Shown here in pieces: positions 11,317-37,079 of a stretch of DNA of 64,000 bases. Every line of letters starts with the position of its first letter. The stretch's first letter is position 1. The notes below the pieces were generated by a model that saw only the letters and a program-made list of their open reading frames with translations, did not search any database and was not told the origin of the DNA. A program made the position numbers and the translations under genes. Origin of the DNA: Escherichia coli. Lineage in GTDB: Bacteria > Pseudomonadota > Gammaproteobacteria > Enterobacterales > Enterobacteriaceae. Location: assembly GCF_030013205.1 (NCBI RefSeq), contig NZ_CP122648.1; one strand, written 5' to 3'.

Positions 11317-11719
11317 AATCTATTCGCCTTATATATGTCTGGAGGTTTTGAGGATGATGATTAATTATTATCGCCAGAACGAAATGTGCACGAAAAATTG
11401 CTATAAGAATTGTGTCACTTTTATCATTGTGACATGACCAGTTCGTCATTAATCTCATGATCGTTTAAATACTACCGCCAAATCATGCAACGAACTTTGC
11501 TGGATTCAGTTTATGCTGCTGTAAATCCGCTCGCAGTAAACCTTTCAGACGCTCCGTGATGTTATCAGTGGTTCTTTAAGCGTTTTGCTGGTGTACTCAC
11601 TACAAACGAATTGCGAATCGAATCAATGTGAAACGGAAAGGTACAATCTCCCTTTTTTTAGTGTTAACATCGCTAAACCGGGTGGAAGGTGAGAGGTTAA
11701 TGTCTTTCATTTGTGTACC

Positions 11720-20119: not shown

Positions 20120-20434
20120 GTGGTTGCTGATCATGAATATTTGTATTGGAAGATAATTGCAATGAGCGAAAGAGTGTTTGAGAAAGAACTATATTCTGAA
20201 TGGGTTATACGCAATAGTCTATATTGGATGACTCCGCTTACTCGATGGAAACTCCATGAAGACGTTTCCCACTGGATAATCTCTTTTGAAAACGATAATC
20301 CCAAATTCCTTTATGAATTCGATAGGCTGCTTAATGATTACTCTTTGCGAGAAAAGCTACAGCATAAAACAGGGGCGTTGAGAGACTCTATTGTCCATAA
20401 AGTGCTTCGCAGTGTTGATGAGAGGCTTTCATAA
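20120..20434 (+). CDS. hxsD: His-Xaa-Ser system protein HxsD (LLNDYxLRE-motif protein)
   Basis: 104-aa ORF containing ...FDRLLNDYSLREKLQHK...; stop overlaps hxsB start (TAATG); true start may be the internal ATG near 20162. Confidence 0.7.
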   Translation: MVADHEYLYWKIIAMSERVFEKELYSEWVIRNSLYWMTPLTRWKLHEDVSHWIISFENDNPKFLYEFDRLLNDYSLREKLQHKTGALRDSIVHKVLRSVDERLS

Positions 20435-21822
20435 TGGAATTGATGCCATTTAATTTTGACAGATTGCCTAATGGACAGGTGTTTATAAGCAACCTTGCAG
20501 GTTTTCATCATTTCATTGGTGAGCAAGACCTTATTGATCTTTCTGATGAGCGAATTAGTTCGGAGCAATCAAACGTGCTAGAAAGTAAGCTTTTCATAAC
20601 CAGTGAAAGCTCATCTGCTATAACTCCCTATGCTTTAAGTTCTGCTTTTGCAAAACGATTGATGAATGAACTGGCTGTCAGGCCAATTTTCATGATTGTA
20701 CCCACATTACGTTGTGACCATACATGCAAGTATTGCCAGGTTAGTAGAGCTTCTGTTAATGCCTCAGGTTACGACCTAAATCCTGAGCTCATCCCCGATA
20801 TTATTTCGGCTATTAAAAAACTATCAACGCCACCTTACAAAATAGAGATACAGGGTGGGGAGCCTCTCTTGCGGTTTGATTTAATTCAGAACATCTATGA
20901 TCAATGTGCTGAAACGCTGGGAAGAACCAATTTTGAGATGGTGGTGGCATCAAGTCTGTCTGTCTTGAATGAGGATATGATTGAATGGTCGAGAGACCGG
21001 AACATAACGTTCTCTGTGTCGCTTGATGGTGAGGAAGTTGTTCACAACAGTAATCGAATTCTTGGTCGTGGGCTTGCGTACAGTAGAACAGTGTCAGGGG
21101 TAGAGGCTATCAAACACTCTTTAGGTGCTGGCCGCGTTGCAACGGTTACTACAGTTACTAAAGAGCTTATCAGACGTCCTGAATCGATTGTTCAGGCTCA
21201 CTTGTCTCTTGGGCTCAAGGACATGTTTATCCGACCTGTTAGTCCCTATGGGTTTGCACAAAAAGCTTCTTTCACCTTTTCTATGGACGAATACTTCAGC
21301 TTCTATGCCTCGTTGATAGATGAAATCCTTAAGATTAATAATGAAGGGATAAGGGTTGTGGAACATTCGGCCTCCATTCATCTGAAAAGGATCTTCAATC
21401 CCGGTTTTAGTGGCTATGCGGATTTAAAGTCTCCAAGTGGAGTCGTGCTTAACAGTATTCTTTTCAATTATGACGGTCGAGTATATGGTAGCGATGAGAG
21501 CCGTATGTTGCAGAAGGTGAATCCTGAAACGGAGTTCAGTGCGGGTGAAGTTAAGACGCTATCATTTTCTGATAGTCCTTACTATAACGCAGTATTGACT
21601 TCATCGTTCAATTTTGCTCTGCCAGGTTGTGATACATGTGCATATCAACCATTTTGTGGTTCAGATCCATGCCAGAACATAAGTGTACAGGGTGAGCCTG
21701 TCGGCGATAGGAGTCGTTCAACGTTTTGTCAATATCACAAGGGGATGTTCAGGTATCTGATGAACTGCATCTCAGAGGGTGGTTCGAAGGCTGAGATGCT
21801 AAAAGGATGGGCATATGTCTGA
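20434..21822 (+). CDS. hxsB: Radical SAM / SPASM-type maturase, first of the pair (HxsB-like)
   Basis: 462 aa; CxxxCxxC in ...PTLRCDHTCKYCQVS...; C-terminal Cys cluster ...LPGCDTCAYQPFCGSDPCQNI...; overlaps the neighbouring genes. Confidence 0.8.
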   Translation: MELMPFNFDRLPNGQVFISNLAGFHHFIGEQDLIDLSDERISSEQSNVLESKLFITSESSSAITPYALSSAFAKRLMNELAVRPIFMIVPTLRCDHTCKYCQVSRASVNASGYDLNPELIPDIISAIKKLSTPPYKIEIQGGEPLLRFDLIQNIYDQCAETLGRTNFEMVVASSLSVLNEDMIEWSRDRNITFSVSLDGEEVVHNSNRILGRGLAYSRTVSGVEAIKHSLGAGRVATVTTVTKELIRRPESIVQAHLSLGLKDMFIRPVSPYGFAQKASFTFSMDEYFSFYASLIDEILKINNEGIRVVEHSASIHLKRIFNPGFSGYADLKSPSGVVLNSILFNYDGRVYGSDESRMLQKVNPETEFSAGEVKTLSFSDSPYYNAVLTSSFNFALPGCDTCAYQPFCGSDPCQNISVQGEPVGDRSRSTFCQYHKGMFRYLMNCISEGGSKAEMLKGWAYV

Positions 21823-22927
21823 GGTTATCAGGAACGATATCTTTCATTTTGCTTCTACAGAGAACGTGCCCACGGGGTTCTATCGGTTATGCAAACAAAA
21901 ACCAGTGAACCCTTTATTCTTTTTGCCCAATTTGCTAGTAGTTGCTGAGGGCAATAATGATGCCATTCCACCATGCTTTGATTTCTCTGTTATTAGCACT
22001 GAATTATTTGAGTCAATTGAAGATGGAGATATTGGGATAATCAACAATGGCAATATGATACGCGTTATTCTGTCACGCAAAGCCAACCATAATACTGTCT
22101 TAGTTACGGAACGCTGCAATAACTTGTGTCTGTTTTGTTCGCAGCCACCAAAGAAAATAAATGATGACTGGCTACTTACCCAATCAGCTCTTGCTATAGC
22201 TTCATTTGGCTTGAACGGAGTTGTTGGGGTCAGCGGTGGTGAACCTTTGCTATATGGGGATGACTTCCTTCACTTCATTGATTTTATCATCGAGAATTCA
22301 CCAGATACTGCTTTACATGTTTTAACAAACGGACGCAAATTTGCTGATACCAACTTTACACAGGAAATGGCAAAGCGAAGCAAAAAGATCAAAATCACCT
22401 TTGGTATCCCGCTCTACTCATCAAGACCACTTGTGCATGATCATCTGGTAGGGAGTGATGGCGCATTTAATGAAACGGTTAAAGGGTTAATCAATGCAGG
22501 AAACTTGGGGATTAATATCGAACTTAGAGTTATTCCTACACTGGCTAACTATACCGAATTGGATGATATCGTAGAATTCGCTGGCCGTGTGTTCTCCAAC
22601 ATCAATCAGATTTCCCTTATGGGGTTGGAGCCTATCGGTTGGGCACGAAAAAACTGGTCCACCATCTTCATTGATCACAGTAGTTATAGTGAGAAAATAA
22701 TCTCTGCCATAGACGCTGCATACAGGTCAGGCATACCTCTGACAATTTTTAATTATCCTTTGTGTTATCTTCCTGAAAGGGCTAGGGAGCTTGCTGTTCA
22801 GTCGATCTCTGATTGGAAAAATTACTATCCAAAAGAATGTGATGAATGTACTCAGAAGCCTTCCTGTGCTGGCTATTTCAGTTCCTCAAAAGGCCGTTTT
22901 CATCAATCACCGAGACCAATTTTATGA
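21815..22927 (+). CDS. hxsC: Radical SAM maturase, second of the pair (HxsC-like)
   Basis: 370 aa; CxxxCxxC in ...VTERCNNLCLFCSQP...; C-terminal Cys-rich ...CDECTQKPSCAGYF...; 8-nt overlap with hxsB, ATGA overlap with hxsA. Confidence 0.8.
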   Translation: MSEVIRNDIFHFASTENVPTGFYRLCKQKPVNPLFFLPNLLVVAEGNNDAIPPCFDFSVISTELFESIEDGDIGIINNGNMIRVILSRKANHNTVLVTERCNNLCLFCSQPPKKINDDWLLTQSALAIASFGLNGVVGVSGGEPLLYGDDFLHFIDFIIENSPDTALHVLTNGRKFADTNFTQEMAKRSKKIKITFGIPLYSSRPLVHDHLVGSDGAFNETVKGLINAGNLGINIELRVIPTLANYTELDDIVEFAGRVFSNINQISLMGLEPIGWARKNWSTIFIDHSSYSEKIISAIDAAYRSGIPLTIFNYPLCYLPERARELAVQSISDWKNYYPKECDECTQKPSCAGYFSSSKGRFHQSPRPIL

Positions 22928-23559
22928 AAAAGTTTAATTTTGCTGCTCTACTTCCGGGATTTTTGGCTCTCAACAATTCTGTATGGGCAAGCGATTCATC
23001 TACAGGAGCGAGTGATTTACCTGGTATGACTCTTAATGAGCATGATTTAGTGATAGCTCCACTTAACACGGAAGTCCCATTTTATATCGCAGGGCATCGA
23101 AGCCATAGTTCTCATAGGAGCCATAGCTCTCATAGATCCTCATCAGGTGGTGGATACTATGGTGGAAGTACCCCCTATTATCCAAAAACATACAGCTCAC
23201 CAAGTTCATCTGGTTCTTCAAGTTCAGGTGCAAGTTCCTCATCGTCCTCTTCCTCGGTGCGTGCACTTCGTTCTAACGATAATAATAGAACCACTAACAC
23301 GAGTTCTGTTGGAACTTCAGAGGTTAACCGTACGAGTAATGGGCTTGCTTCTGATGCAGAGAAACGTAAGCGATTGATTATGCGAGTTCAGTTCGCATTG
23401 CTGGACAGGGGATTTTATAACGGAAATATTGACGGCATAATGGGGCCATCCACAAGGCTGTCTGTGAAAAATTACCGCATTGCGAATGGATTACCGATTC
23501 CTGCAACTGAAACACTCGACGCACAATTGTTAAATTCTTTGAATATATTAGCTCGCTAA
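22924..23559 (+). CDS. hxsA: His-Xaa-Ser repeat protein (HxsA-like), secreted, with peptidoglycan-binding-like C-terminal domain
   Basis: From internal ATG of track ORF 22846..23559: MKKFNFAALLPGFLALNNSVWA (signal peptide), HRSHSSHRSHSSHRS (5 HXS repeats), Ser/Gly-rich linker, C-terminal ...RVQFALLDRGFYNGNIDGIMGPSTRLSVKNYRIANGLPIPATETLDAQLL. Confidence 0.8.
   Translation: MKKFNFAALLPGFLALNNSVWASDSSTGASDLPGMTLNEHDLVIAPLNTEVPFYIAGHRSHSSHRSHSSHRSSSGGGYYGGSTPYYPKTYSSPSSSGSSSSGASSSSSSSSVRALRSNDNNRTTNTSSVGTSEVNRTSNGLASDAEKRKRLIMRVQFALLDRGFYNGNIDGIMGPSTRLSVKNYRIANGLPIPATETLDAQLLNSLNILAR
23097..23135 (+). repeat. Short in-frame tandem DNA repeat encoding the His-Xaa-Ser units
   Basis: agccatagttctcatagg / agccatagctctcataga-like 18-nt units; coordinates approximate. 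Confidence 0.6.
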
Positions 23560-23861
23560 ATCTCAGTGAGGTATAAATAAAAAGCAATAAATTATATTAG
23601 TCGCGCGTCCATTATTGGTGGGTAAGTTCAAGGACCGTCTGCTCTGTGTCAGGGGCAGATGGTCAGATAAGACTGTGCCGTTTAGCCCGCTAGTACGTGT
23701 CTGGACTAATACATTTAAGAGTCTCATTCTGCTATCCATTCCGGGATTTTTGCCTCAAGCTCAAGCTGTGTGGTAAAGCCGCTGTTATCAATGGTGTGCT
23801 CGGCTTTTGCAATAATCCAGTCCTGATTATCAATCTCGCTTTTAAATCCTGTTACCGTGCC

Positions 23862-23899: not shown

Positions 23900-25471
23900 T
23901 TACTGAGAGCTCAGATCAACTTTCCAGGGCAACAGATCGCGTACCCGGTTTGCCGGCCAGTCCTGGATATGTTCAATGACGTAACGCAGCCACTTTTCTG
24001 GCTCCACATTGTTCAGACGGCATGTGCCGATCAGCGAGTACAACACCGCCGCATGTTCACCACCGCTGTCGGAACCCGCGAACATCCAGTTTTTCCGGCC
24101 TACGGCCACTCCCCGTAAGGCGTTCTCTGCGGTGTTGTTGTCGATTTCCACCCAGCCATTACTGCAGTACACGTTCAGTGCATCCCACTGTTTCAGCAGG
24201 TATGCGAACGCTTTTGCCGTATCTGAGTGACGCGACAGTGTTTTCATCTGTTGCTGTATCCAGTCATACAGTGACTGCATCAGTGGCGCGGCTCTGGCTT
24301 TTCTTGCCGCCAGACGCTGTTCTGCTGAACAGCCCCGGACCTCTGCCTCGATGGCATACAGTTCACCGATACGCTGCAGGGCTTCCGTGGTGATGTAGGT
24401 GGGCGCTCTTGCATGCACATCGTGGATTTTTCTCCGGGCATGAGCCATACACGCGGCTTCCGTTATTCTGCCGGATTCGTATAACGCCCGGTAACCACCG
24501 TAAGCATCGGCCTGAAGCACACCGCTGTAACCGGCCAGGTGATTTTGTGGATGGATACCTTTCCGGTCCGGACTGTACGCGAACCAGACCGCCGGGGGCA
24601 TCTGTGAACCGGCGTTACGGTCATCACGGACGTAGACCCACAGCCGGGCTGTCCGGGTTTTACCGCTGCCCGGCTCCTGGACCGGGACGGGGATATCATC
24701 AGCATGGACTTTACCGGGCATCAGCACATACTGGCGCAGGACGTCATACAGCGGCTCCAGCAGTTCAGCAACAGCACCTGTCCAGCGCCCCAGTGTGGCA
24801 CGGCTCAGCTCCACTCCCTGACGACGGTATATTTCTGACTGGCGGTATAACGGCAGATGGTCTGCATATTTCCCGGTGACAACATGGGCCAGAAGCCCCG
24901 CTCCGGCATAACTGCGTGCAATGGGTTTTGAAGGTACTGGTGCCTGTACGATATGGTCGCACCGGCAACAGGCCTGTTTCGGACGTTGTGTTTCGATAAC
25001 CTTAAAGGCGCTGCTGATAAGCTCCAGTTGCTCTGACACATCACATCCCAGAGAACTGAGTTCACCACCACAGGCAGGACAGCATTCCTCTTCCGGCCGG
25101 ATAACCCGGGTTTCACGGGGAAGTGAGGCCGGTAACGGTTTACGGGCTGAAGACTGGCGCAGGGCGGATGGCAGTACCGGGTCATATTGCTCACCCAGCG
25201 TTTCCGCCATTTCTTCCTGAAGTGCGCTGATTCGCTCCTGTGCTTCCTGTATCTGCCGTTCGGTTTTTGCACGAAGTTTTTCTGAGCTTTTACCGAACTG
25301 CATACGTTGCAGTTTCGCAACCAGCGCCTTCAGCCGGTTGATTTCGGAAGCATAAGCCGCCACCCGCTGTGAGAGCAGGCGGTTGTATTCAGCCATCTGG
25401 CGGATGGTGTCCTGTTGCGTCTGCAACAGTGCCCGCAGGCGGGCGTTCTCATGAGCAAGTGAGGTGTCCAT
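23900..25471 (-). CDS. IS66-family transposase TnpC
   Basis: 523 aa with leucine-zipper-like N-terminus, Cys cluster (CPACGG...CRCDH) and C-terminal ...[23 protein letters not shown]... typical of IS66 TnpC. Confidence 0.85.
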
Positions 25472-25490
25472 ATCCTCACTTTACAACGGG

Positions 25491-25838
25491 TTATATGCGG
25501 ATTCCAGCGCGTTCCGTTCGTTTCGGGTGCTTCCAGTTGATACCTTCAAGAAGCATGGATAACTGAGCCGGAGTAAGGTGCACCTTGCCGTCACGGGTGA
25601 CTGGCCAGACGAAGCGGCCCCGCTCCAGGCGTTTGGTGAAGAGGCACAGTCCGTCACTGTCAGCCCACAACACTTTTATCTGGTCACCCCGGCGTCCGCG
25701 GAAGATGAACAGGTGTCCGGAGAACGGGTCATCCTTCAGGACGTTCTGAACTTTTGATGCCAGGCCGTTAAAGCCATTTCGCATATCGGTGATACCTGCA
25801 ACCAGCCAGATACGCGAACCTGCAGGGAGAGATATCAT
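25491..25838 (-). CDS. IS66-family accessory protein TnpB
   Basis: 115 aa, ...RIWLVAGITDMRNGFNGLASKVQNVL... Confidence 0.8.
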   Translation of the reverse strand: MISLPAGSRIWLVAGITDMRNGFNGLASKVQNVLKDDPFSGHLFIFRGRRGDQIKVLWADSDGLCLFTKRLERGRFVWPVTRDGKVHLTPAQLSMLLEGINWKHPKRTERAGIRI

Positions 25839-26515
25839 CAGTGGCTGCTCCCTTTTATTTCGCGGATAAGTGTCTGTAATAACGCCGGCGTCAGTTTACC
25901 TTTAAGCCTGAGAGTTCCGGCCGGCAGAACCAGCTCACAACACAGACTGTCGGACGGTGTATTTATCTGCTCTGGTTCCTGTGCGGGGGCCGGGATTTTA
26001 TTATCCGGCTCCGGCGTTAACGTCACGGGAAGCAGTGCCGGCATATTTTTTCCGGAAGGCAGCAGGCCACCTTTCCGGTATTGATGGCGCCAGTTGAAGA
26101 GCAGGTTATCGTTGATTCCGTTTTCCCGGGCGATCTGCGCCACACAGGCTCCGGGCTGCAGTGACTGCTCCACTAAGGCGATTTTAAACTCATAAGGGAA
26201 GTTGGGCCGCCGGGGACGTTTTTTTACCACGGGGGCTTCGGATATAACGGTGCTTTCAGGACGTACGACTGGTACCGTGGAAAATTGTCCGTAAAGGCAG
26301 GCATCAAGTTCCTGCTCCGACATGCCTGCGGGCAAAGGCCACGAAAGGCCAGCTCTCCGAAAGCGCACGAACATACTACAAACTGTTGATTTTGGTACAC
26401 CCAGGCGACGCCCGGCCACAACCCGGGGTAAATGTTCTTCAAAGTGAAGACGTAAAGCTTCAGTGATCCAGGTCCGGTGTTTCATACGATAGTGTCCATT
26501 AAAAATGATGGACAT
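25838..26515 (-). CDS. IS66-family accessory protein TnpA (start uncertain; track ORF may be over-extended)
   Basis: ...RPRRPNFPYEFKIALVEQSLQPGACVAQIARENGINDNLLFNWRHQYRKGG... Confidence 0.65.
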   Translation of the reverse strand: MSIIFNGHYRMKHRTWITEALRLHFEEHLPRVVAGRRLGVPKSTVCSMFVRFRRAGLSWPLPAGMSEQELDACLYGQFSTVPVVRPESTVISEAPVVKKRPRRPNFPYEFKIALVEQSLQPGACVAQIARENGINDNLLFNWRHQYRKGGLLPSGKNMPALLPVTLTPEPDNKIPAPAQEPEQINTPSDSLCCELVLPAGTLRLKGKLTPALLQTLIREIKGSSH

Positions 26516-26568
26516 TATTTTTGTAGAGCCGGAGGAAACAGACCAGACGGTTTAAATGAGCCGGTTAC

Positions 26569-26576
26569 ATGCATTT
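26569..26576. repeat. Target-site duplication (right copy) of the IS66-family element
   Basis: ATGCATTT. Confidence 0.7.
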
Positions 26577-27266
26577 CGGGGTAGAGTTCTGCACGCCCAC
26601 GTGCCAGCGTGATGGAAAATGATGCGGCTCCGCGTTGTAGCTGCTGCCACTTTGCCGCCGCTGCGCGTCTTGCTGCCTGCTCGTTCTGATAAGTCTTGCG
26701 TAACACAAACACATTGCCTTCCGCACCTTCCATATAATCACCTTCACGGCTGCTGCTTTTCTCCTTTTTAGGTTTTGGTGGTTTGCGGCGTTTCACACTG
26801 ACTTTTTTCTTTTTCCCGTAATTAAGATCAAGCCAGTAAGCGCGTACCCCCGTATACGCTTCGCGGTCAGCAATGCGGAACTGATGGCGATCGCCGCTGT
26901 TGCGCGTGATGGCGAACGATGGCAACGGCTGGCCCTGTGCGTTCACGCCACCGCCTGGCATGATGAATAACAGATTATCGCTTTTTACCGTGGTGATTGC
27001 GCCCAGCATTTCCGCCATGCGCGTAAGGAAGGACATGTCGCTTTCTTCGGTCTGGTCGGCGTGGTCGATTTCGATATCCATCAGCATTTCGCTGATTTGC
27101 GGTTTCAGGCCGTACCGATGAGCGATGGCGGATACCACACGCTCAACGGTCACATCATGCCAGGACACCTCACGTTTAACGTTAAATTCATCCCGAAAAT
27201 CTGCGCTTCTGGCTGAAACAGTCAGCCTGTCCGGCGGTCCTTCGTGAGCGATTTCATCAACAATTA

Positions 27267-27685
27267 GACTGGCCCCCTGAATCTCCAGACAACCAATATC
27301 ACTTAAATAAGTGATAGTCTTAATACTAGTTTTTAGACTAGTCATTGGAGAGCAGATGATTGATGTCTTAGGACCGGAGAAACGCAGACGGCGTACTACA
27401 CAGGAAAAGATCGCTATTGTTCAGCAGAGTTTTGAACCGGGAATGACGGTCTCCCTTGTTGCCCGGCAACACGGTGTGGCAGCCAGCCAGTTATTTCTCT
27501 GGCGCAAGCAATACCAGGAGGGAAGTCTTACTGCTGTGGCCGCAGGAGAGCAGGTCGTTCCTGCCTCTGAACTTGCTGCTGCCATGAAGCAGATTAAAGA
27601 ACTCCAGCGCCTGCTCGGCAAAAAAACGATGGAAAATGAACTCCTTAAAGAAGCCGTTGAATACGGGCGTGCAAAAAAAGTGGAT
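27267..27685 (+). mobile_element. IS2 left-end fragment (IRL plus 5' part of insC/orfA), truncated near IS2 position ~416
   Basis: TAGACTGGCCCCCTGAATCTCCAGACAACCAATATCACTTAAATAAGTGATAGTCTTAATACTAGTTTTTAGACTAGTCATTGGAG... then Ins[57 protein letters not shown]...[10 protein letters not shown]; homology ends just after the A-run; remainder of IS2 absent. Confidence 0.8.
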
Positions 27686-30247
27686 ACAGTGCTCAGCGAA
27701 AAACAACAAAAGCTGATGCAGCAGTTAAGCACCCGGCTTGAACGCCTGAATGAATCGCGCACACGGGAAATTCAGAAAATGCGGGAGCTTGGCGGAGAGC
27801 TGAAACGCCACGGCATTTCCCTGACAGGCAGCGATAACACCATCCAGCAGGCCATCAGACGCACCGAACAGTACAACAACCAGCTTGAACGCGAACGGCA
27901 GGCGCTTGCGCGTGTAACACGGGCGCGTGAGCGGTATTCGCGCGCGCAGGAAACAGCGGGAAAACTGAAAACAGGTGGTGCGCTGGCAATTGGTGCGGCA
28001 ACGGCGGGCGGCTATGCTGCCGGGCGTTTTTTGCAGCCTGCGATCGGGTTCGGCAAAGAGATGTCCCGCGTTCAGGCACTGACGCGAATCGACAAAAACA
28101 GCCCGCAGTTTAAGGCGCTGCGTGAGCAGGCGTTAAAACTTGGCTCTGAAACACAGTTTACTGCGAGTGATGCCGCCAGTGGGCAGAGCTTTCTGGCAAT
28201 GGCTGGTTTTACTCCGCAGGCCATTCAGGCCGCATTGCCCGGTGTTCTTAATATGGCGCTGGCAGGTGGCGTCGAACTCGGCGAGACGGCTGATATAGGC
28301 TCCAATATCCTCACACAGTTCAACCTGACAGCCGATCAAATGGACCGTGTTGGCGATACGCTGACAGCAGCATTCACCCGGACCAATACTGATTTACGCG
28401 CGCTGGGCGAAACCATGAAGTATACCGGTCCGGTTGCCGCAAAACTTGGTATCAGTCTTGAAGAAGCGGCGGCCATGGCCGGGATGCTTGCCAATAATGG
28501 TCTTCGCGGAAGCGATGCTGGTACGGCCATGCGCGCAAGTCTGTCCCGCCTTGCATCACCGCCAAAAGCTGCGGCTGATGCACTGAAAGAGCTGGGGGTG
28601 TCAGTTGCTGACGCCAGAGGCAAAATGCGCCCGATGGAGGATGTGCTGCTTGATCTCTATAAGGCGACACAAAAATACGGACAGGTGGACCAGGTTTCCT
28701 TCTTCAAGGACATCGCCGGAGAAGAGGCGTTCGTTGGTTTGCAGACGCTTGTTGCGGCGGCTGGTTCAGGAGAGCTGCAAAAACTGACCAGAGAATTGCA
28801 GGGGGCAAGGGGAGAGGCCGATCGCGTCGCAAAAGTAATGGCCGATAATCTTGATGGGGACCTGAAAAATCTCGACAGCGCATGGGAAGGTCTTCGTATT
28901 CGCATCAGTGATCTGGTTGACGGTCCGCTGCGTTCTGTCACGCAGTGGCTCACGCGGGTGCTTGAAAAAATCACCTCGCTGGCGCAGGCCCATCCGGTAC
29001 TGACGCGCCAGCTACTGATAGCAGGCGGTGCGTTGCTGGCAATGACTGCAACGATTGGCTCGTTGTCGCTGGTTATTGGGGTGCTTTACGGGAAGCTGGC
29101 CACCCTGCGTCTTGGTTTTGACATTCTTACCCGGTCAATGAATGTCGTCAGGGTGTTGCCTGCGCTGTGGGGAATGGTGACGGGTTCCGTTTCTTTACTG
29201 GGAGGCGCCATCGGGGCGTTGTTCAGTCCGGTTGGTCTTATCGTGGCTGCGCTTGCCGGAGCTGCCGTTCTTATCTGGAAATACTGGGATCCCATCAGGG
29301 CATTTTTTGCCGGGGTGTTCAGCGGGATTATGGAAAGGCTGACCCCGTTGCGCGAAACCTTTGAACGGTTTGGTCCTGTTTTTGACACAATCGGAAGCGG
29401 GATCAGCCAGGTGTTTAACTGGTTTAAATCGCTGCTGTCACCGATGGAGTCCAGCAAGGAAACGCTGGATAAATGTACCAGTGCTGGCGAGATATTCGGT
29501 AACGTTCTTGGCGGTGCGTTACAGCTTGTTCTGACACCTGCAAAAATGCTACTGGATACGCTGGCGTGGATACTTGAAAAACTTGGCGTCCTTCCGGATG
29601 AAGCGGAAAGGGCGCGCAAGAAAATCGAAGACGCACAGCGTGCGGCCATTCTTCAGGACAAGGTTGCCTTGCTTCAGGGTGACCTGGCGAAAATCAATCC
29701 GCCGAAGCCTGTGGAAAATGGCAATGGCACCGGAGGTAATAAACCCAAAGACAACAAACCGCTCACAGACAGCAATACCGGGACGCTACGCAGACTCAGC
29801 AAAATTGCTGATAACACAGGTAAGCTGGTTGATGAGACGAAAAAACGCATTGGCCCCGGCGATATTGTCTTTAAGAACCTGCCCCGCGCACTTGCTGTTC
29901 GTGGAGAGTGGCAGGAGCGGAAGATTGCGCAGGTCAGTAAGCCTGCCCCCGCAATTAATATCACACCCGTGGTCCCGGCTCCGCTGCCTCCGGCGCTGGT
30001 CCCTGTTGTTGCGGCCAGCTCCCGCCCGGTGGCGGAGGCCATACGATCTCCAGTGGCATCAGTTCCTGTAACTTCCCGTAACCGGGAGCCTGTTGCCTCC
30101 GGATTTGGTGGTGAAATTCATGTTCATCTGCATAACGTTGTTACGCAGAATCCCCGCGAACTGGCGAAACTGGTCGGTGAAATGGTCAGGGCAGAAATGG
30201 AACGGCGCGCCCGTGCCGGGCGTGGCAGTTTTTACGATAAAGATTGA
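27356..30247 (+). CDS. Chimeric ORF: IS2 InsC N-terminal ~110 codons fused in frame to a P2 gpT-like tail tape measure protein
   Basis: Track ORF 27311..30247 (978 aa); after ...EYGRAKK the sequence continues as tape-measure-like (..[71 protein letters not shown]..). Confidence 0.75.
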
Positions 30248-30253
30248 GGAGTC

Positions 30254-30748
30254 ATGGCCATGATGATGATCTACGGCATGTTTGTTTTTGAGCTGCGCAC
30301 GCTGCCGCATCAGCAGTTACAGCAAAACAAAAGCTGGCGGCATGTGAAAAATGAACGCGTTAACCGTTCAGCAAGCTGGCAGTATATCGGTGCAGGTGAT
30401 GATCGCATCGTTCTTTCTGGTATGCTTTATCCTGAAATTACAGGTGGCGAAGTGTCGCTGTCGCTGCTGACCACGCAGGCGTATACAGGACGCCCCTGGC
30501 CTCTTATTGATGGCGTCGGGCAGATTTACGGCATGTATGTCCTGACCGAAACGAATACGACCCGTTCCGAGTTTGATCGCTACGGTAAGGCGAAAAAGAT
30601 AGAATTTTCACTGACCCTTGAACGCTGTGATGAGGATTTGCGGGAGCGCCTGCAATCCTCATCGTTCAGCGATATGCTGTCCGGCTTCAAAGATAAAGTG
30701 ACATCATCCCTTAACAGCGCGGCCAGTTCAGTTAAAGGGCTGTTCTGA
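30254..30748 (+). CDS. P2 gpU-like tail protein
   Basis: MMMIYGMFVFELRTLPHQQLQQNKSWRHVKNERVNRSASWQYIGAGDDRIVLSGMLYPEITGGEVSL... resembles P2 gpU (MMVLGMFVFELRT...). Confidence 0.8.
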   Translation: MAMMMIYGMFVFELRTLPHQQLQQNKSWRHVKNERVNRSASWQYIGAGDDRIVLSGMLYPEITGGEVSLSLLTTQAYTGRPWPLIDGVGQIYGMYVLTETNTTRSEFDRYGKAKKIEFSLTLERCDEDLRERLQSSSFSDMLSGFKDKVTSSLNSAASSVKGLF

Positions 30749-30918
30749 TTTAATGCTGGCCACTCATACCCTCATACCTGGTAATAAGTGGCCAGTCTTA
30801 ACACTCACCATTTGATTGCACCAGTGTTAACGATTTGTTACTGGACATCAGACACGCTGGATAGCCAGTAGAAACATACCATAAAAATTATTACAATAAT
30901 TGGTCACATGATTATCTT

Positions 30919-31482
30919 ATGCTGAATAATAGAGATATGAATATTAATGAACTTAAAGATTGTATTCACTATGAAGTAATCGGTAGCGAGCGTCCTTTCT
31001 CCTGGCGAAAGGCAATTGTTCGCGCAATAAAACATAGAAGAGTTCGTTATTTATTTTGGTGGCGCATAGCCAAATACCTTTTTGATAAAGGCGGATACTG
31101 TCGGAAGATTGCGGGGAAAATAGAACGTTTCATTCTTGATAAATATAATGTAACAGTCCCTTTAACTGTAAATATAGGGAAAGGCTTTGATATTTCTTAT
31201 CTCAACAGTGTTGTTATCGGTCACAAAGTAACAATCGGTGAAAATTGTTCAATAAAACCAGGGGTAACTATTGGGCTGCGTGGTGATTTTAATGATATGG
31301 ATATTGTTATAGGACATAATGTGACCATTGGTTGTAATGCCACCATTCTTGGTGGCAAAGTGCGTATAGGAAACAATGTCACAATAGGTGCTCATGCATT
31401 GGTATTGCATGATATTCCAGATGATTCAACATTCATCACTAAATTTCAGTCTGAAGTTATCTGCTCGTCCTCCCGCACATAA
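30919..31482 (+). CDS. Hexapeptide-repeat (left-handed beta-helix) acetyltransferase, AT-rich cargo gene
   Basis: Repeats of [LIV]-G-x-x-x-x-I-G ([22 protein letters not shown]...[33 protein letters not shown]); low GC; 3' end overlaps tfa 3' end. Confidence 0.75.
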
Positions 31483-32063
31483 CCCTGATTCATCAGCTCT
31501 GGCCATACGATATCCGGAGCTGTACTGGTGTCAATTCTACTCACTAATACTCTGTATTTTCTCCAGGAATCCAGTTGTGAATTTTCCTCGTTTGTTGCTA
31601 TTTCAAGATTAACTGCATCCTGCAGAATTGCGATGTTATCTGTTGCTTCCTGGATCAACCTTGCCTTTTTCTCTTCCGCTTCCCGTATCCGAAACAGTTT
31701 TTCTGCTTCCTCATCCTTCACCCAGGATACGCCGTCCCACTTCTGATACTCCCCTGCTGGCGACAACCAGGTGACATTCTCTGGTAGCGGTCCGGGTTCA
31801 GAAATAAACAACGCGTCCCCCGATGCCACGTCATAGACCGTTTTACCACGATGGTCTTCAACAATATTCCACGATTCATTTTCACTGTTAAAAACTGCCA
31901 CAAAGCCAGCAGGAATTTCCGGTGGGGCGATATCTGTAGAATTGGCTGGCAGCCCTGTATGAGGTGGAATATATGCGTCACCTTCACCAATAAACTCATT
32001 AGTTCCGGCCAGCAGGTTATAAATTTTTACAGTACGTGATTGTTCACTCATTCTGAATGCCAT
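31446..32063 (-). CDS. Tail fibre assembly chaperone (Tfa; P2 gpG-like)
   Basis: 205 aa immediately downstream of, and start/stop-overlapping with, the tail fibre gene; Tfa-like sequence. Confidence 0.75.
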
Positions 32064-33724
32064 TATGCAAGCCTCACAATATAATTAAATGCGATGTTTT
32101 TAACGGTGTTTTCCGCGTTACCAGCAGCGTTAACGGTGATGGTGTGTCCATGTGAACCAATCGCAACAGAGTGCGTATGAGCGCCAATACCAACAGTGTG
32201 TGCATGTGCCCCAGCACTTGTAGCGGTACCTGATACTGAGTGGGTATGTGCGCCAGAAGAAGGCACAGTTCCATTCCCCACCACCGTGCCACTTGATGCA
32301 CCATCAAGCCAGTCGAAATTCATACCTCCACTGTTTGGTCTCCTTAATGGAACGGTATGTGTATGTGCGCCAGCACTATTTGCAGTACCAGATACATTGT
32401 GGGTATGTGCACCAGTGTTATTCGTTGATTTAGTACCGTAATCAAACGACGATGTGGTTTTCGTACCCAAATCCGTACTGGATGCGCTGGCACTGTGGGT
32501 GTGCGATTTAATGCCATCCTGTTCCTGAGACAATACGGCCCGACCACTGGCGGGTTTGCCCTTGATTGTCCAGCCGCGCATATCTGGAATAACACCAGAA
32601 GGATAGGCAATAGCCAGTTTCGGATATGCTGCCTTATCAAACGTCTGCCCCTGCATGATTGCATAACCTGCAGGTGGCGTATCTGATGGCCACGGCAGCG
32701 GAACACCTGGCGGAAACGCTTCAATATTTGCCGAGCCGTCAAATTTTACGCCGTTAATTGTCCTTGCCGTTTTCAGCTTTGTTGCTGTAGCAGCATTGCC
32801 GGATAGTTCGCCAGAAAGACCACCGCTGAATGTCTGTTTCGCCGCCCATGTCTGAGCTTCGTCGATAATTGGCACACGTCTTGTCGTAATCGTGCGGCTT
32901 CCCGGATTTCCTGAAATGCGAACCATAAAAAAGCGGTAATTCGCTTTACTTGCAGTGCTGCGCCATACATGCATTGAGCGCCCCGTACCGAAATCATCAC
33001 TCGGACCAACTGCGATGTTTATCAGGTTGCCATCAATGACGCCCCAGTCCATACCGTCGGGAATATTGGTCATGTTATCAAGCCGAACGGTTATCAGACT
33101 GCCCGGCACAAAATCGTAGGTCTGCCAGTCCAGGCTGGTGAGTTTTGCCACTGCGCCACCGATCCCCATATTCAGGGGCAACGAAAAGGAGTTATACACT
33201 TCTCGCCATTCGGTCCATGTGCTCCCGGCGTAGACGCGCTCAAAAGTGCGCCCCTGTGTGGTTTCTGATTTCCCTGTGGTTGTGTAACGCTGCCAGACAG
33301 ATACACCATCAAAACGCCTGATTACTTCCAGTATCCCAAGCAATGTCGCCCCAGCAGCGTCCAGCATCGGACCGTTTGTCGCCTTTCCTGTAACACTGTA
33401 AATACCGGGGTCGGTTAGAACATTCAAATCACCTTCGTAATAACGGCTCTCTGACTGATGACCGACTCTTAACCACGGTTCCCACTGCGGATTTGATGCA
33501 TCCCAGCTTGCCGCAAGGCAGCGAACGTACATATTCCCACGACGAGTGGTATAACGTTGCGTTCTTCCATAATTCCCGCCTTCGAGGATCTCAAGCGTCC
33601 CCTGAGCAAAGCCGCCTTCCTCTGGATAATTGCGTTCATATGAAGCTATAGCCGAGCTACTGTTACGCCATAAACCAAGATGCTCAGCGGCTCCAAGCGT
33701 ATTCAGGTCTATAGTCGTACTCAA
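32063..33724 (-). CDS. Phage tail fibre protein
   Basis: 553 aa; ...[41 protein letters not shown]... and C-terminal His-rich repeats [38 protein letters not shown]. Confidence 0.8.
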
Positions 33725-34000
33725 AGGGCGGGTAGTTCAAGAAGCTGTTCCGGAGCGTTTGTTGATGATCCCGATCTGCATAAAAATATTCTTATTTGCT
33801 ATCCGTATGGTAACTATGAATATGACAATATTATCTATGTTGAAAAGAAAACTAATGCATTGGGCGTTGTTGTGACGTATGCACAGACTGCACGAGACGA
33901 TGCTGAATAAGATACTACAGAGATAGTCCACTTTTTTGTTTATTTGTCGGGATAAAAACAAATTACCCCGACTCACCATGTATTAATCTTCCGCTTTAAG

Positions 34001-34384
34001 TTAGTCTTGTAGCTGCGCTGTCCTGCTATGCAGCAAAGCGGCGTACTTTAATGCGTCCTGTGCTTTCTGGAATTTAAGTGCATAGTCAGTGGCGATTTTT
34101 TCCAGTTCAGCGATTCGGTTGTCTTTGGTTTCCAGCCAATCAAGTAGCGCCAATACTTCAGGATCCCCGACATCCAACACTGTTACGCGTGATTTTTCAT
34201 AATGTTCGTCGGCAAGAGTTCGACCAATTTTGAAATCTCCATCATCACCATAACCGGAGCAGCCATAAACAACCTGTGCTCCAGATATTCGCTGAATTGA
34301 CATTTCTTCGCCGCAAATAGGGCATTTTGGTACTGGTGCAGGTGAATAACGTTCACGTAATGCCTGATAGTTGATTTTGCTCAT
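34001..34384 (-). CDS. Hypothetical phage protein with CxxC zinc-ribbon-like motif
   Basis: 127 aa, ...PVPKCPICGEEMSIQRISGAQVVYGCSGYG...; no family recognised. Confidence 0.4.
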   Translation of the reverse strand: MSKINYQALRERYSPAPVPKCPICGEEMSIQRISGAQVVYGCSGYGDDGDFKIGRTLADEHYEKSRVTVLDVGDPEVLALLDWLETKDNRIAELEKIATDYALKFQKAQDALKYAALLHSRTAQLQD

Positions 34385-34642
34385 TAAGTCGCTCTTCTTG
34401 TTTATGTTCTGAGATGGAGATCAGGGCGAACTCGCCCTGACGTTGTGTTATTCAGGAAATAACGCCCTGATATTTCCGGCCATCTGACTGGTTATCTGTG
34501 CGGTTGGTACTGGCTGTGACAGGGGGCGTTCTGTCCTGGTTTGTGTCACTGATAACGCCTCATCGTCAGCCCATGCAGCCAGTCGGTAAGCCTCTGCCGG
34601 ATTCATTTTCAGAAGTGCCAGCCCGGCCAGAAAAGCCACGCG

Positions 34643-35221
34643 TTGGCCGCTTTTGCGGGCTTCCGGTGTAAGGCTGTCCAGCCAGGCGCATGCTTCGCTT
34701 TCGTTCTTGACGGCCGCAGGCTTCAGATAGAAACTTATCTGAGTAAGTCTGAATGTGTTCAGTTGCTGGATGCACTGGCTGAAAATCCCGATGAACGGCT
34801 GGCTGTCGAAATCCTTCTGTCGACCGGGGCGCGATGGGGCGAGGTAGCGGTACTGGAGCAGCGCCGTGTTCTTCATTGTCGAATCACTTTTTCAAAAACG
34901 AAGAACAGCAAAAACCGTACCGTTCCTATTTCTGAAAGCCTGTTTGAAAAGATCAAAAAACGGGGCGGGAAACTGGTGTTTCCGACGCTGGATTATCCAT
35001 TGGTTCGCGATGTCATCAAAACGGTCGCATCTGATGTTCCTGACGGCCAGGCTGTTCATGCGCTGCGCCACACCTTCGCCAGTCATTTCATGATGAACGG
35101 CGGCAATATTCTGACGCTCCAGAAAATTCTGGGGCACGCAAAGATTCAGACAACGATGATTTATGCCCATCTTGCGCCGGATTACTTGCAGGATGCGGTG
35201 AGATTTAATCCAATAGCTTGA
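34643..35221 (+). pseudogene. int: Tyrosine recombinase (phage integrase) C-terminal catalytic-domain fragment
   Basis: ...LSTGARWGEVA...NRTVPIS...HALRHTFASHFMMNGGNILTLQKILGHAKIQTTMIYAHLAPDYL (R, HxxR, catalytic Y); ~190 codons versus ~330 for full length; N-terminal domain not found in frame. Confidence 0.7.
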
Positions 35222-36098: not shown

Positions 36099-37079
36099 AT
36101 GCTGACACTTGCCCGCCAACAACAGCGACAAAATATTCGCTGGTTATTATGCCTGTCAGTTTTGATGCTGCTGGCGCTTCTCTTAAGCCTTTGCGCCGGT
36201 GAACAATGGATCTCGCCAGGTGACTGGTTTTCTCCTCGAGGCGAACTGTTCGTCTGGCAGATTCGCCTGCCACGTACGCTGGCTGTATTGCTGGTTGGTG
36301 CGGCGTTGGCTATATCCGGCGCTGTAATGCAGGCGTTATTTGAAAATCCTCTGGCAGAACCTGGACTACTTGGCGTCTCTAATGGCGCAGGCGTGGGGCT
36401 TATCGCCGCGGTATTGCTTGGGCAAGGGCAACTCCCCAACTGGGCGCTGGGGCTGTGTGCGATTGCTGGCGCGCTTATCATCACTTTAATACTCTTACGT
36501 TTCGCCCGTCGTCATCTTTCGACCAGTCGGTTATTGCTGGCTGGCGTTGCATTAGGGATTATCTGTAGCGCACTAATGACGTGGGCTATCTACTTTTCCA
36601 CCTCTGTTGATTTACGTCAGCTGATGTACTGGATGATGGGCGGTTTTGGCGGCGTAGACTGGCGGCAAAGCTGGCTGATGCTGGCATTGATCCCCGTGTT
36701 GTTGTGGATCTGTTGTCAGTCCAGACCGATGAATATGTTAGCACTTGGCGAGATCTCGGCGCGGCAACTGGGTTTACCCCTGTGGTTCTGGCGCAATGTG
36801 CTGGTGGCAGCGACCGGCTGGATGGTTGGCGTCAGTGTGGCGTTGGCGGGTGCTATCGGCTTTATTGGTCTGGTGATCCCACATATTCTCCGGTTATGTG
36901 GTTTGACCGATCATCGCGTATTACTTCCCGGCTGCGCGCTGGCAGGGGCGAGCGCATTGCTGCTGGCCGATGTTGTAGCGCGCCTGGCATTAGCTGCTGC
37001 AGAGCTGCCTATTGGCGTGGTCACCGCAACGTTGGGTGCGCCGGTGTTTATCTGGTTATTGTTAAAAGCAGGACGTTAG
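36099..37079 (+). CDS. btuC: Vitamin B12 ABC transporter permease
   Basis: 326 aa, [44 protein letters not shown]... Confidence 0.95.

Follow-up and report, generated by a model that had tools for sequence, protein, structure and literature searches.

What does a histidine-rich repeat in the distal part of a phage tail fibre gene stand for, a recent event at the DNA level or a property of the encoded protein? The question is raised by an open reading frame of 553 codons with a TTG start (32063-33724, minus strand), located in the window, i.e., the whole stretch of 64,000 nucleotides that was analysed. It was originally predicted to be an apparently intact tail fibre gene, followed by its chaperone gene, with internally duplicated His-rich repeats that act as hot spots for recombination changing receptor specificity.

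A direct repeat on both sides of the fibre tip

A self-comparison of the gene locates the two copies at 32351-32415 (copy 1, residues 437-458) and 32192-32256 (copy 2, residues 490-511), both on the minus strand. They constitute a direct repeat of 65 nt with 52 matching positions (80%), one copy being shifted against the other by 159 nt (53 codons), in agreement with the predicted duplication of about 60 nt at a distance of about 160 nt. Codon shuffles of the fibre gene (n = 200) gave a mean of 34.0 matches on the best 65-nt diagonal (sd 1.2; maximum 37) compared to the 52 observed, which bears out the expected similarity of the gene to itself. Tandem Repeats Finder detects no array in the fibre gene, hence the copies are dispersed rather than tandem. 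A repeated peptide had also been pointed out in the antisense open reading frame 32196..32441; it is indeed seen there and is the mere reverse-strand reading of both copies. At the protein level, the His-rich C-terminal units correspond to seven HxH motifs, all within the last 27% of the reading frame. The respective hexapeptides start at residues 406, 438, 452, 491, 505, 514 and 523 and read, in that order, KSHTHS, GAHTHN, GAHTHT, GAHTHS, GAHAHT, GAHTHS and GSHGHT. Copy 1 comprises the second and third motif, copy 2 the fourth and fifth. The 64-kb window contains five occurrences of the coding pattern for G-A-H-[T/A]-H, against an expectation of 0.09, and all five are in the fibre gene.

A phmmer search against all PDB sequences matched residues 321-553 to the T4 gp37 tip (2XGF; E = 1.6e-83, full length), with chain residues 16-242 as the aligned range. 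In this alignment, all seven HxH motifs of the fibre (14 histidines) coincide with the HxH motifs that form the iron sites of T4 gp37, at positions 883, 915, 929, 966, 980, 989 and 998. This numbering, obtained from the alignment, agrees with PMC6957217, where H929 and H931 are iron ligands and seven iron atoms are placed along the needle. The same paper names G921 and G964 as structural glycines; when the alignment is read by eye, these correspond to G446 and G491 of the fibre. More generally, HxH motifs forming octahedral iron sites on the trimer axis are presented in PMC6116203 as a common motif of fibres and spikes, found in T4 gp37, R-pyocin fibres and P2 gpV.

Domain limits could be transferred from T4 gp37, for which PMC6957217 gives the collar as 811-881 and 1010-1026, the stem as 882-931 and 960-1009, and the tip as 932-959 (limits and iron sites are taken from PMC6957217, PMC6116203 and PMC11705849). 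The first part of the collar domain (T4 811-881, D10) comprises residues 336-406 (32507-32719) and includes a Pfam Collar match (PF07484; residues 340-387, 1.4e-10). It is followed by an ascending stem with the first three HxH motifs (residues 407-456, 32357-32506; T4 882-931), a hypervariable, presumably receptor-binding tip subdomain that also stands out in the tip comparison (residues 457-486, 32267-32356; T4 932-959) and a descending stem with the last four motifs (residues 487-536, 32117-32266; T4 960-1009). A C-terminal strand (residues 537-553, 32066-32116; T4 1010-1026) closes the collar that the stem interrupts; the C-terminal end of the fibre (14 letters) is identical to that of T4. 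All these parts are encoded on the minus strand. The spacing of the seven motifs is 32-14-39-14-9-9, in which the tip gap of 39 residues compares to 37 in T4. In addition, the Phage_fiber profile (PF03335), which describes a 14-residue unit, matches with 29.8 bits versus a gathering cut-off of 20, best at residues 435-448, and its length equals the HxH-to-HxH spacing of 14 residues. The similarity spans the whole solved domain, with an identity of 62.5% to T4 and 64% to lambda.

Directly 3' of the fibre gene lies an intact gene for a Tfa tail fibre assembly chaperone (31446-32063, minus strand; Caudo_TAP, PF02413, 1.6e-39), whose ATG overlaps the stop codon of the fibre gene (TAATG). The product is 81% identical to lambda Tfa and is homologous to T4 gp38 (28% identity, E = 3e-19), and its function as a Tfa/gp38-type chaperone is predicted on this basis. 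The Collar, Phage_fiber and Caudo_TAP matches together support the original reading of a tail fibre gene followed by an assembly chaperone. A hexapeptide-repeat acetyltransferase, recognised as an open reading frame with a profile match (30919-31482, plus strand), faces tfa in convergent orientation, such that the 3' ends of the two genes overlap by 37 nt.

The last 233 residues thus very probably represent a receptor-binding needle of the T4 gp37/lambda Stf type within a truncated P2-like prophage fibre. As in the solved homologue, each chain would exit the collar domain, reach the fibre tip and then return, and three chains together would make up a thin stem. At each of the seven levels, the HxH motif of every chain of the predicted homotrimer would contribute two histidines to an octahedral Fe(II) site. 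The 65-nt copies would then encode the outgoing arm (arm 1) and the returning arm (arm 2), both directly bordering the variable tip, which is likely the part that contacts the receptor. The Tfa chaperone encoded downstream would be needed for folding. An AlphaFold2 monomer of the 233-residue C-terminal part, based on a 32-sequence alignment, scored poorly (mean pLDDT 44, pTM 0.19), as may be anticipated for a trimer that is obligate and interwoven. Papers retrieved under ‘His box/GXHXH’ were all unrelated; the ‘His box’ wording is said to go back to Tetart in 1996.

A truncated gene in a decayed P2-like prophage

The view that fibre and chaperone are the apparently intact structural genes holds for Tfa, but not for the fibre. 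Compared to the intact allele of strain 1190, which has 885 codons, the sequence is 99.9% identical up to position 33735 and unrelated beyond. What is present in the window (32063-33735, minus strand) comprises codons 329-885, the distal two-thirds, of a fibre gene at the P2 gpH position with a lambda Stf/T4 gp37-type distal part, and RefSeq likewise lists it as an N-terminally incomplete pseudogene. The strain 1190 allele carries an N-terminal Phage_tail_fib domain (PF12571, residues 1-151) and a Phage_fiber_2 repeat. Both the former, which provides baseplate attachment, and the latter are among the first 328 codons that are missing here, so the copy in the window is not a complete P2 gpH-type fibre. 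Similarly, the fibre gene of strain 1190 follows the baseplate genes J and I and precedes the assembly gene, whereas the upstream genes of this V-W-J-I-H-G late operon are gone in the window.

At the deletion junction (33735/33736), fibre codon 329 is joined to DNA that is found just beyond the portal gene in the intact P2-like prophage of the O121 strain RM8352. Based on that context, a single internal deletion took the 5' part of the fibre gene along with I, J, W, V, S and R, the genes for lysis and those for the head up to and including Q. An integrase fragment around 1 kb past the junction is the recombinase nearest to fibre and tfa. The island between ihfA and btuC (around 19.1-36.0 kb of the window) is one heavily decayed P2-like prophage, in which IS66 and IS3-family insertions are found as well, next to a tape-measure gene that is truncated. 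Chromosomes of porcine ETEC, e.g., K_EC180, match the window at 100% identity. A lambdoid origin of the sequence that adjoins the junction on its right, considered in view of its ead/Ea22-like gene and the integrase fragment, was dropped as O121 RM8352 places this DNA in a P2-like prophage. The possibility that a 20-codon reading frame behind gpU (30753-30815) is the severed start of gpD was abandoned likewise, as tblastn found no gpD match. Finally, nothing connects a nearby His-Xaa-Ser (Hxs) system to the HxH motifs of the fibre, as the motifs differ (H-x-S versus H-x-H).

Since the internal deletion would have removed the promoter region of the operon together with all baseplate and head genes, the fibre gene would be a dead remnant that is unable to build a fibre on its own and could at most serve as a donor in recombination. 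Past the junction, the earliest start codon is the TTG at 33724, only eleven bases away, and no sigma-70-like promoter was found upstream on the minus strand. The truncated fibre is therefore probably not expressed, although a fortuitous promoter may drive the remaining reading frame. One could argue instead that the truncated gene and tfa remain functional, either as a free receptor-binding protein with a decoy or exclusion role or as a supplier of tip cassettes to co-resident prophages. Indeed, neither the 553-codon frame nor tfa shows any damage, their identity to intact alleles being 99.9-100%, the truncated arrangement recurs unchanged in at least 12 complete genomes, the chromosome itself has two further places that match fibre and tfa (three in the record), and the module occurs in 3904 out of 5426 E. 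coli genomes, which offers many partners for recombination. Nonetheless, the position of the start codon so close to the junction, the lack of a promoter-like site upstream and the deletion of the upstream genes of the operon, with which the native late promoter was presumably lost, speak against a functional remnant, and the identity among strains may just reflect the clonal descent of porcine ETEC. We consider such retained function unlikely.

Age of the repeat and proposed exchange of the tip

Conservation was assessed in a set of 122 sequences, made up of T4, the query and 120 homologues from databases. The HxH motifs follow the spacing 32-14-X-14-9-9 in 118 of these, the sole variable being the tip gap X (35-56 residues), and none of the 14 histidines varies in a 32-sequence alignment with T4 and lambda among its members. 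Between the near-constant arms, the 122 sequences display 44 distinct tips, which fall into about a dozen unrelated classes when grouped by eye; the nucleotide identity of the tip to other cassette types is 37-47%. Lambda Stf deviates with a spacing of 42-14-48-14-9-9-9, having an extra 10-residue unit on the ascending side and an extra 9-residue HxH unit on the descending side. Such paired additions are to be expected if a hairpin can only be extended on its two strands at once. Because the stem is hairpin-shaped, with one arm on either side of the tip, the sequence repeat would be a structural requirement, and the same architecture and spacing in T4, lambda and 118 out of 122 sequences imply that the duplication itself is ancient. 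Judged from these comparisons, the 65-nt repeat is an old structural repeat, formed by the antiparallel arms of the stem and common to T4 and lambda, and not a recent duplication. The description of the gene as internally duplicated, with its hint of a recent DNA event, hence has to be given up: the copies correspond to the two antiparallel arms of a T4 gp37-type needle.

Three other explanations of the repeat were weighed against this structural one. The region is rich in Gly, Ala, His, Thr and Ser and thus biased in composition, so that the similarity might be a chance or low-complexity effect. However, the codon shuffles preserve composition and still fall far below the observed match, and the HxH motifs can be aligned with a solved structure at every residue and do not vary among homologues; on these two grounds, chance is excluded for all practical purposes. 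Another view holds that the repeats are the crossover sites of an inversion or shufflon system that switches tips, as known for Mu G, P1 C and e14 P. The related fibre genes of Rac and Qin do have a pinR or pinQ invertase just downstream of tfa, but in the window this position is taken by the acetyltransferase and no recombinase is annotated next to fibre and tfa. Moreover, the copies are direct instead of inverted and encode, in frame, conserved structural motifs. The AAACCnnGGTTT crossover core is absent within 5 kb of the locus, and its matches with one mismatch (two in the whole window versus 2.6 expected) are both far off. In contrast to Gin, Cin and Pin segments, the locus therefore has neither an adjacent serine invertase nor inverted AAACCnnGGTTT-like sites, and an invertible segment is ruled out with virtually no residual doubt. 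Annotation and the scan for the Hin/Gin-type core bear out the original remark that neither an invertase nor a crossover site is seen nearby.

The third alternative assumes a recent DNA duplication or ongoing gene conversion that keeps the arms alike, such that unequal crossing-over could lead to duplication or loss of the tip. The DNA identity between the copies is for the most part a consequence of the peptide repeat. Given both peptides and the codon usage of the gene, a match of 44.6 ± 2.7 out of 66 nt is expected, compared to 52 observed (P = 0.006), and 11 out of 18 codons are identical between the arms where 5.9 are expected (P = 0.012). The observed match also exceeds that of five other cassette types (34-47 out of 66 nt) and of T4 (35 out of 66 nt). 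T4 host-range mutants reportedly arose through the duplication of a small gp37 segment, as Tetart and coworkers are said to have described in 1996. Yet, the shared architecture and spacing in T4, lambda and 118 of the 122 sequences oppose a recent origin, and extra arm-tip units occur in none of the 120 homologues. The excess at synonymous sites is modest and, with this cassette ranking first among about a dozen classes (grouped by eye), does not survive a correction for selection. It can be taken as no more than a weak hint of homogenisation between the arms, as this cassette was flagged for looking repetitive and is the extreme among many types. We regard recent duplication or conversion as quite unlikely, and the joint reading that intragenic gene conversion homogenises the arms and that the fibre/Tfa/acetyltransferase block persists as a donor of host-range cassettes as improbable. 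If it were true, the direct-repeat homology of around 65 nt would be a built-in device to duplicate, delete or swap the receptor-binding tip. The distal fibre/Tfa/acetyltransferase block of a dead prophage would then be a donor for the other fibre genes of the cell, and would add a possible receptor-modifying exclusion enzyme.

The structural reading of the repeat leaves room for exchange of the tip between phages. The C-terminal module that occurs in 3904 of the 5426 complete E. coli genomes includes stfR and stfQ of K-12-type strains, and this particular tip cassette is present in 171 of the 5426. The latter is found on diverse backbones, namely P2-like prophages, a P1-like plasmid of 94 kb, phage-plasmids of 47.5 kb and the isolated phage vB_EcoM-613R2, and in every case examined it is accompanied by the same tfa and convergent acetyltransferase. 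The block common to these backbones extends from around fibre codons 172-224 to past the acetyltransferase. Its upstream boundary lies at or just after the Phage_fiber_2 repeat, which occupies codons 170-210 of the intact protein. Pairwise comparisons with the gene in the window reveal mosaics. For a lambdoid Stf (L003), the nucleotide identity is 97% before arm 1, 58% in arm 1, 46% in the tip, 78% in arm 2 and 95% thereafter, such that the diverged block sets in at arm 1 and fades within arm 2. For a P2-like allele (L004), it is 80% before arm 1 (in the collar), 97% in arm 1 and 100% in the tip, in arm 2 and thereafter. The evidence on exchange boundaries consists of about ten such comparisons, made informally. 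The pattern of L003 and L004 fits two published statements, both given in PMC3157838: exchange takes place within or beside the most conserved motifs (citing Tetart et al. 1996 and 1998), and the distal parts of T4 g37 and g38 derive from a lambda-like phage. As the arms and the outer stem are conserved and the tip is not, homology frames the tip, and this homology on both sides of the specificity determinant would let otherwise unrelated phages swap tips. The claim that the repeats are recombination hot spots affecting specificity is supported in its general form, which is the one already published (PMC3157838) and visible in the pairwise mosaics.

Comparison with known systems

Two annotation corrections follow for this locus. 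The reading frame is a 5'-truncated pseudogene of a decayed P2-like prophage and not an intact fibre gene, and its His-rich repeats are the predicted iron-binding HxH rungs of a gp37/Stf-type needle. The locus can further serve as a textbook example of how a hairpin-shaped trimeric stem would force a repeat on either side of the tip, and of how a specificity cassette can be swapped once it is bordered by this conserved repeat. The presence of one cassette on P2-like, P1-like, phage-plasmid and phage backbones is useful background for the engineering of fibre chimeras, yet poses no new question.

The closest known system is the tip of T4 gp37 (2XGF, with the D10 collar and the D11 stem and tip) with gp38, to which the identity of 62.5% extends over 233 residues. 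Both have the collar, seven equally spaced HxH motifs, the C-terminal strand and a variable tip between the third and fourth motif, with a homologous chaperone gene immediately downstream. In contrast, the tip in the window is unrelated in sequence to that of T4 (37% nucleotide identity) and two residues longer, so that it probably recognises a different receptor. The two arms also resemble each other far more closely here (18 out of 22 residues versus 10 out of 22 in T4), and the module sits on a truncated P2-type fibre. The comparison with Stf/Tfa pairs that had been suggested for E. coli prophages was carried out as well: the C-terminal module shares 64% of its residues with lambda Stf and about 80% of its nucleotides with stfR of the StfR/TfaR pair of Rac in E. 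coli K-12, next to the 81% for lambda Tfa; the StfQ/TfaQ pair of Qin belongs to the same group. Unlike the fibre in the window, lambda Stf has eight HxH motifs and one extra ascending unit, the N-terminal part of lambdoid fibres differs, and Rac and Qin have a Pin invertase where the window has the acetyltransferase. With P2 gpH/gpG, the intact strain 1190 allele shares the P2-type Phage_tail_fib domain and the position after J and I and ahead of the assembly gene. The copy in the window differs in that its first 328 codons are lost along with every baseplate gene upstream, and its distal part is of the gp37/Stf type common to P1-like and 47-kb phage-plasmids.

More distant parallels exist for the iron sites and for the mode of exchange. 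In R-type pyocin fibres and the P2 gpV and phi92 spikes, three symmetry-related HxH motifs bind an octahedral iron buried on the trimer axis, as is predicted here, and their supposed role is to keep the fibre in register or to make it stiffer (PMC6116203). The folds of those proteins differ, however, and hold one site or a few, compared to the seven that would be stacked here in a hairpin stem. In T2/T6-type gp38 adhesins, conserved structural motifs, there rich in glycine, similarly flank hypervariable receptor-binding segments and act as exchange points (PMC3157838). However, these adhesins are unrelated in protein and fold and form a separate protein on the fibre tip. The His-rich repeat feature is thus of an already known kind, namely the stem of a gp37/Stf-type tip with its series of HxH motifs, encoded by a prophage gene that is truncated.

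Orientation of the tail genes

In P2, the tail genes, the V-W-J-I-H-G block and gpD/ogr are all co-directional. In the P2-like prophages compared here, the tail genes lie on the strand opposite to both the V-W-J-I-H-G block and gpD/ogr (26516-30748 in the window, 4498-11350 in L002 and 1-1686 in the P2-like allele L004). In E. coli strain 1190, which carries the intact fibre allele, this set runs from FI to U; the window retains T' and U alone. Of gpD, only a C-terminal part is left (GPD profile positions 81-304). The arrangement is common to prophages at different chromosomal sites, namely serS in strain 1190 and ihfA/btuC in the window. Long inverted repeats were sought at the ends of the opposite-strand segment, and none were found. 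Next to the acetyltransferase gene, the 47.5-kb phage-plasmid has a fragment of 93 nt that corresponds to gpU at its 3' end. This match suggests that the block present there was copied from a prophage with opposite-strand tail genes.

Insertions, deletions and cargo in the prophage remnant

An IS66-family element (ISCro1; approximately 23901-26516) abuts the gpD fragment (26516-27226) just upstream of a long ORF on the plus strand (27311-30247). In this ORF, the helix-turn-helix N-terminus of an IS3-family transposase OrfA (profile match PF01527) is joined to the C-terminal ~860 amino acids of a P2-type tape-measure protein; RefSeq divides it into two pseudogenes. Past the deletion junction at 33735/33736, the same prophage continues in pieces over 33736-35221. 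Here a hypothetical gene is partial and an ead/Ea22-like gene (34001-34384) is truncated; a partition/stability gene is also present, and a tyrosine integrase is represented by a C-terminal piece (34643-35221). The next gene is btuC at 36099. A second deletion must have taken out ParM, the replication endonuclease and the immunity region.

Between ogr and gpD, the remnant carries as cargo a complete His-Xaa-Ser system, annotated as hxsD, hxsB, hxsC and hxsA with two radical-SAM maturases (20163-23560, plus strand); strain 1190 has one hypothetical gene at this position. Elsewhere in the window, the type III secretion effector gene espL1 (9419-11317, minus strand) lies between yniD and thrS in surroundings that are otherwise K-12-like core genome.

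The acetyltransferase gene linked to the fibre tip

A hexapeptide-repeat acetyltransferase gene (30919-31482, plus strand) converges on the fibre chaperone gene tfa (31446-32063, minus strand) with a 37-nt overlap. It accompanies the block of fibre tip and tfa in P2-like prophages, a P1-like 94-kb plasmid, 47.5-kb phage-plasmids and phage vB_EcoM-613R2. The closest solved structures are serine, maltose and galactoside acetyltransferases, and the enzyme could have a putative role in modifying the receptor of the linked tip. The slot that it holds in the window is occupied by a SAM methyltransferase in a lambdoid relative, and by a Pin invertase in the K-12 prophages Rac and Qin.
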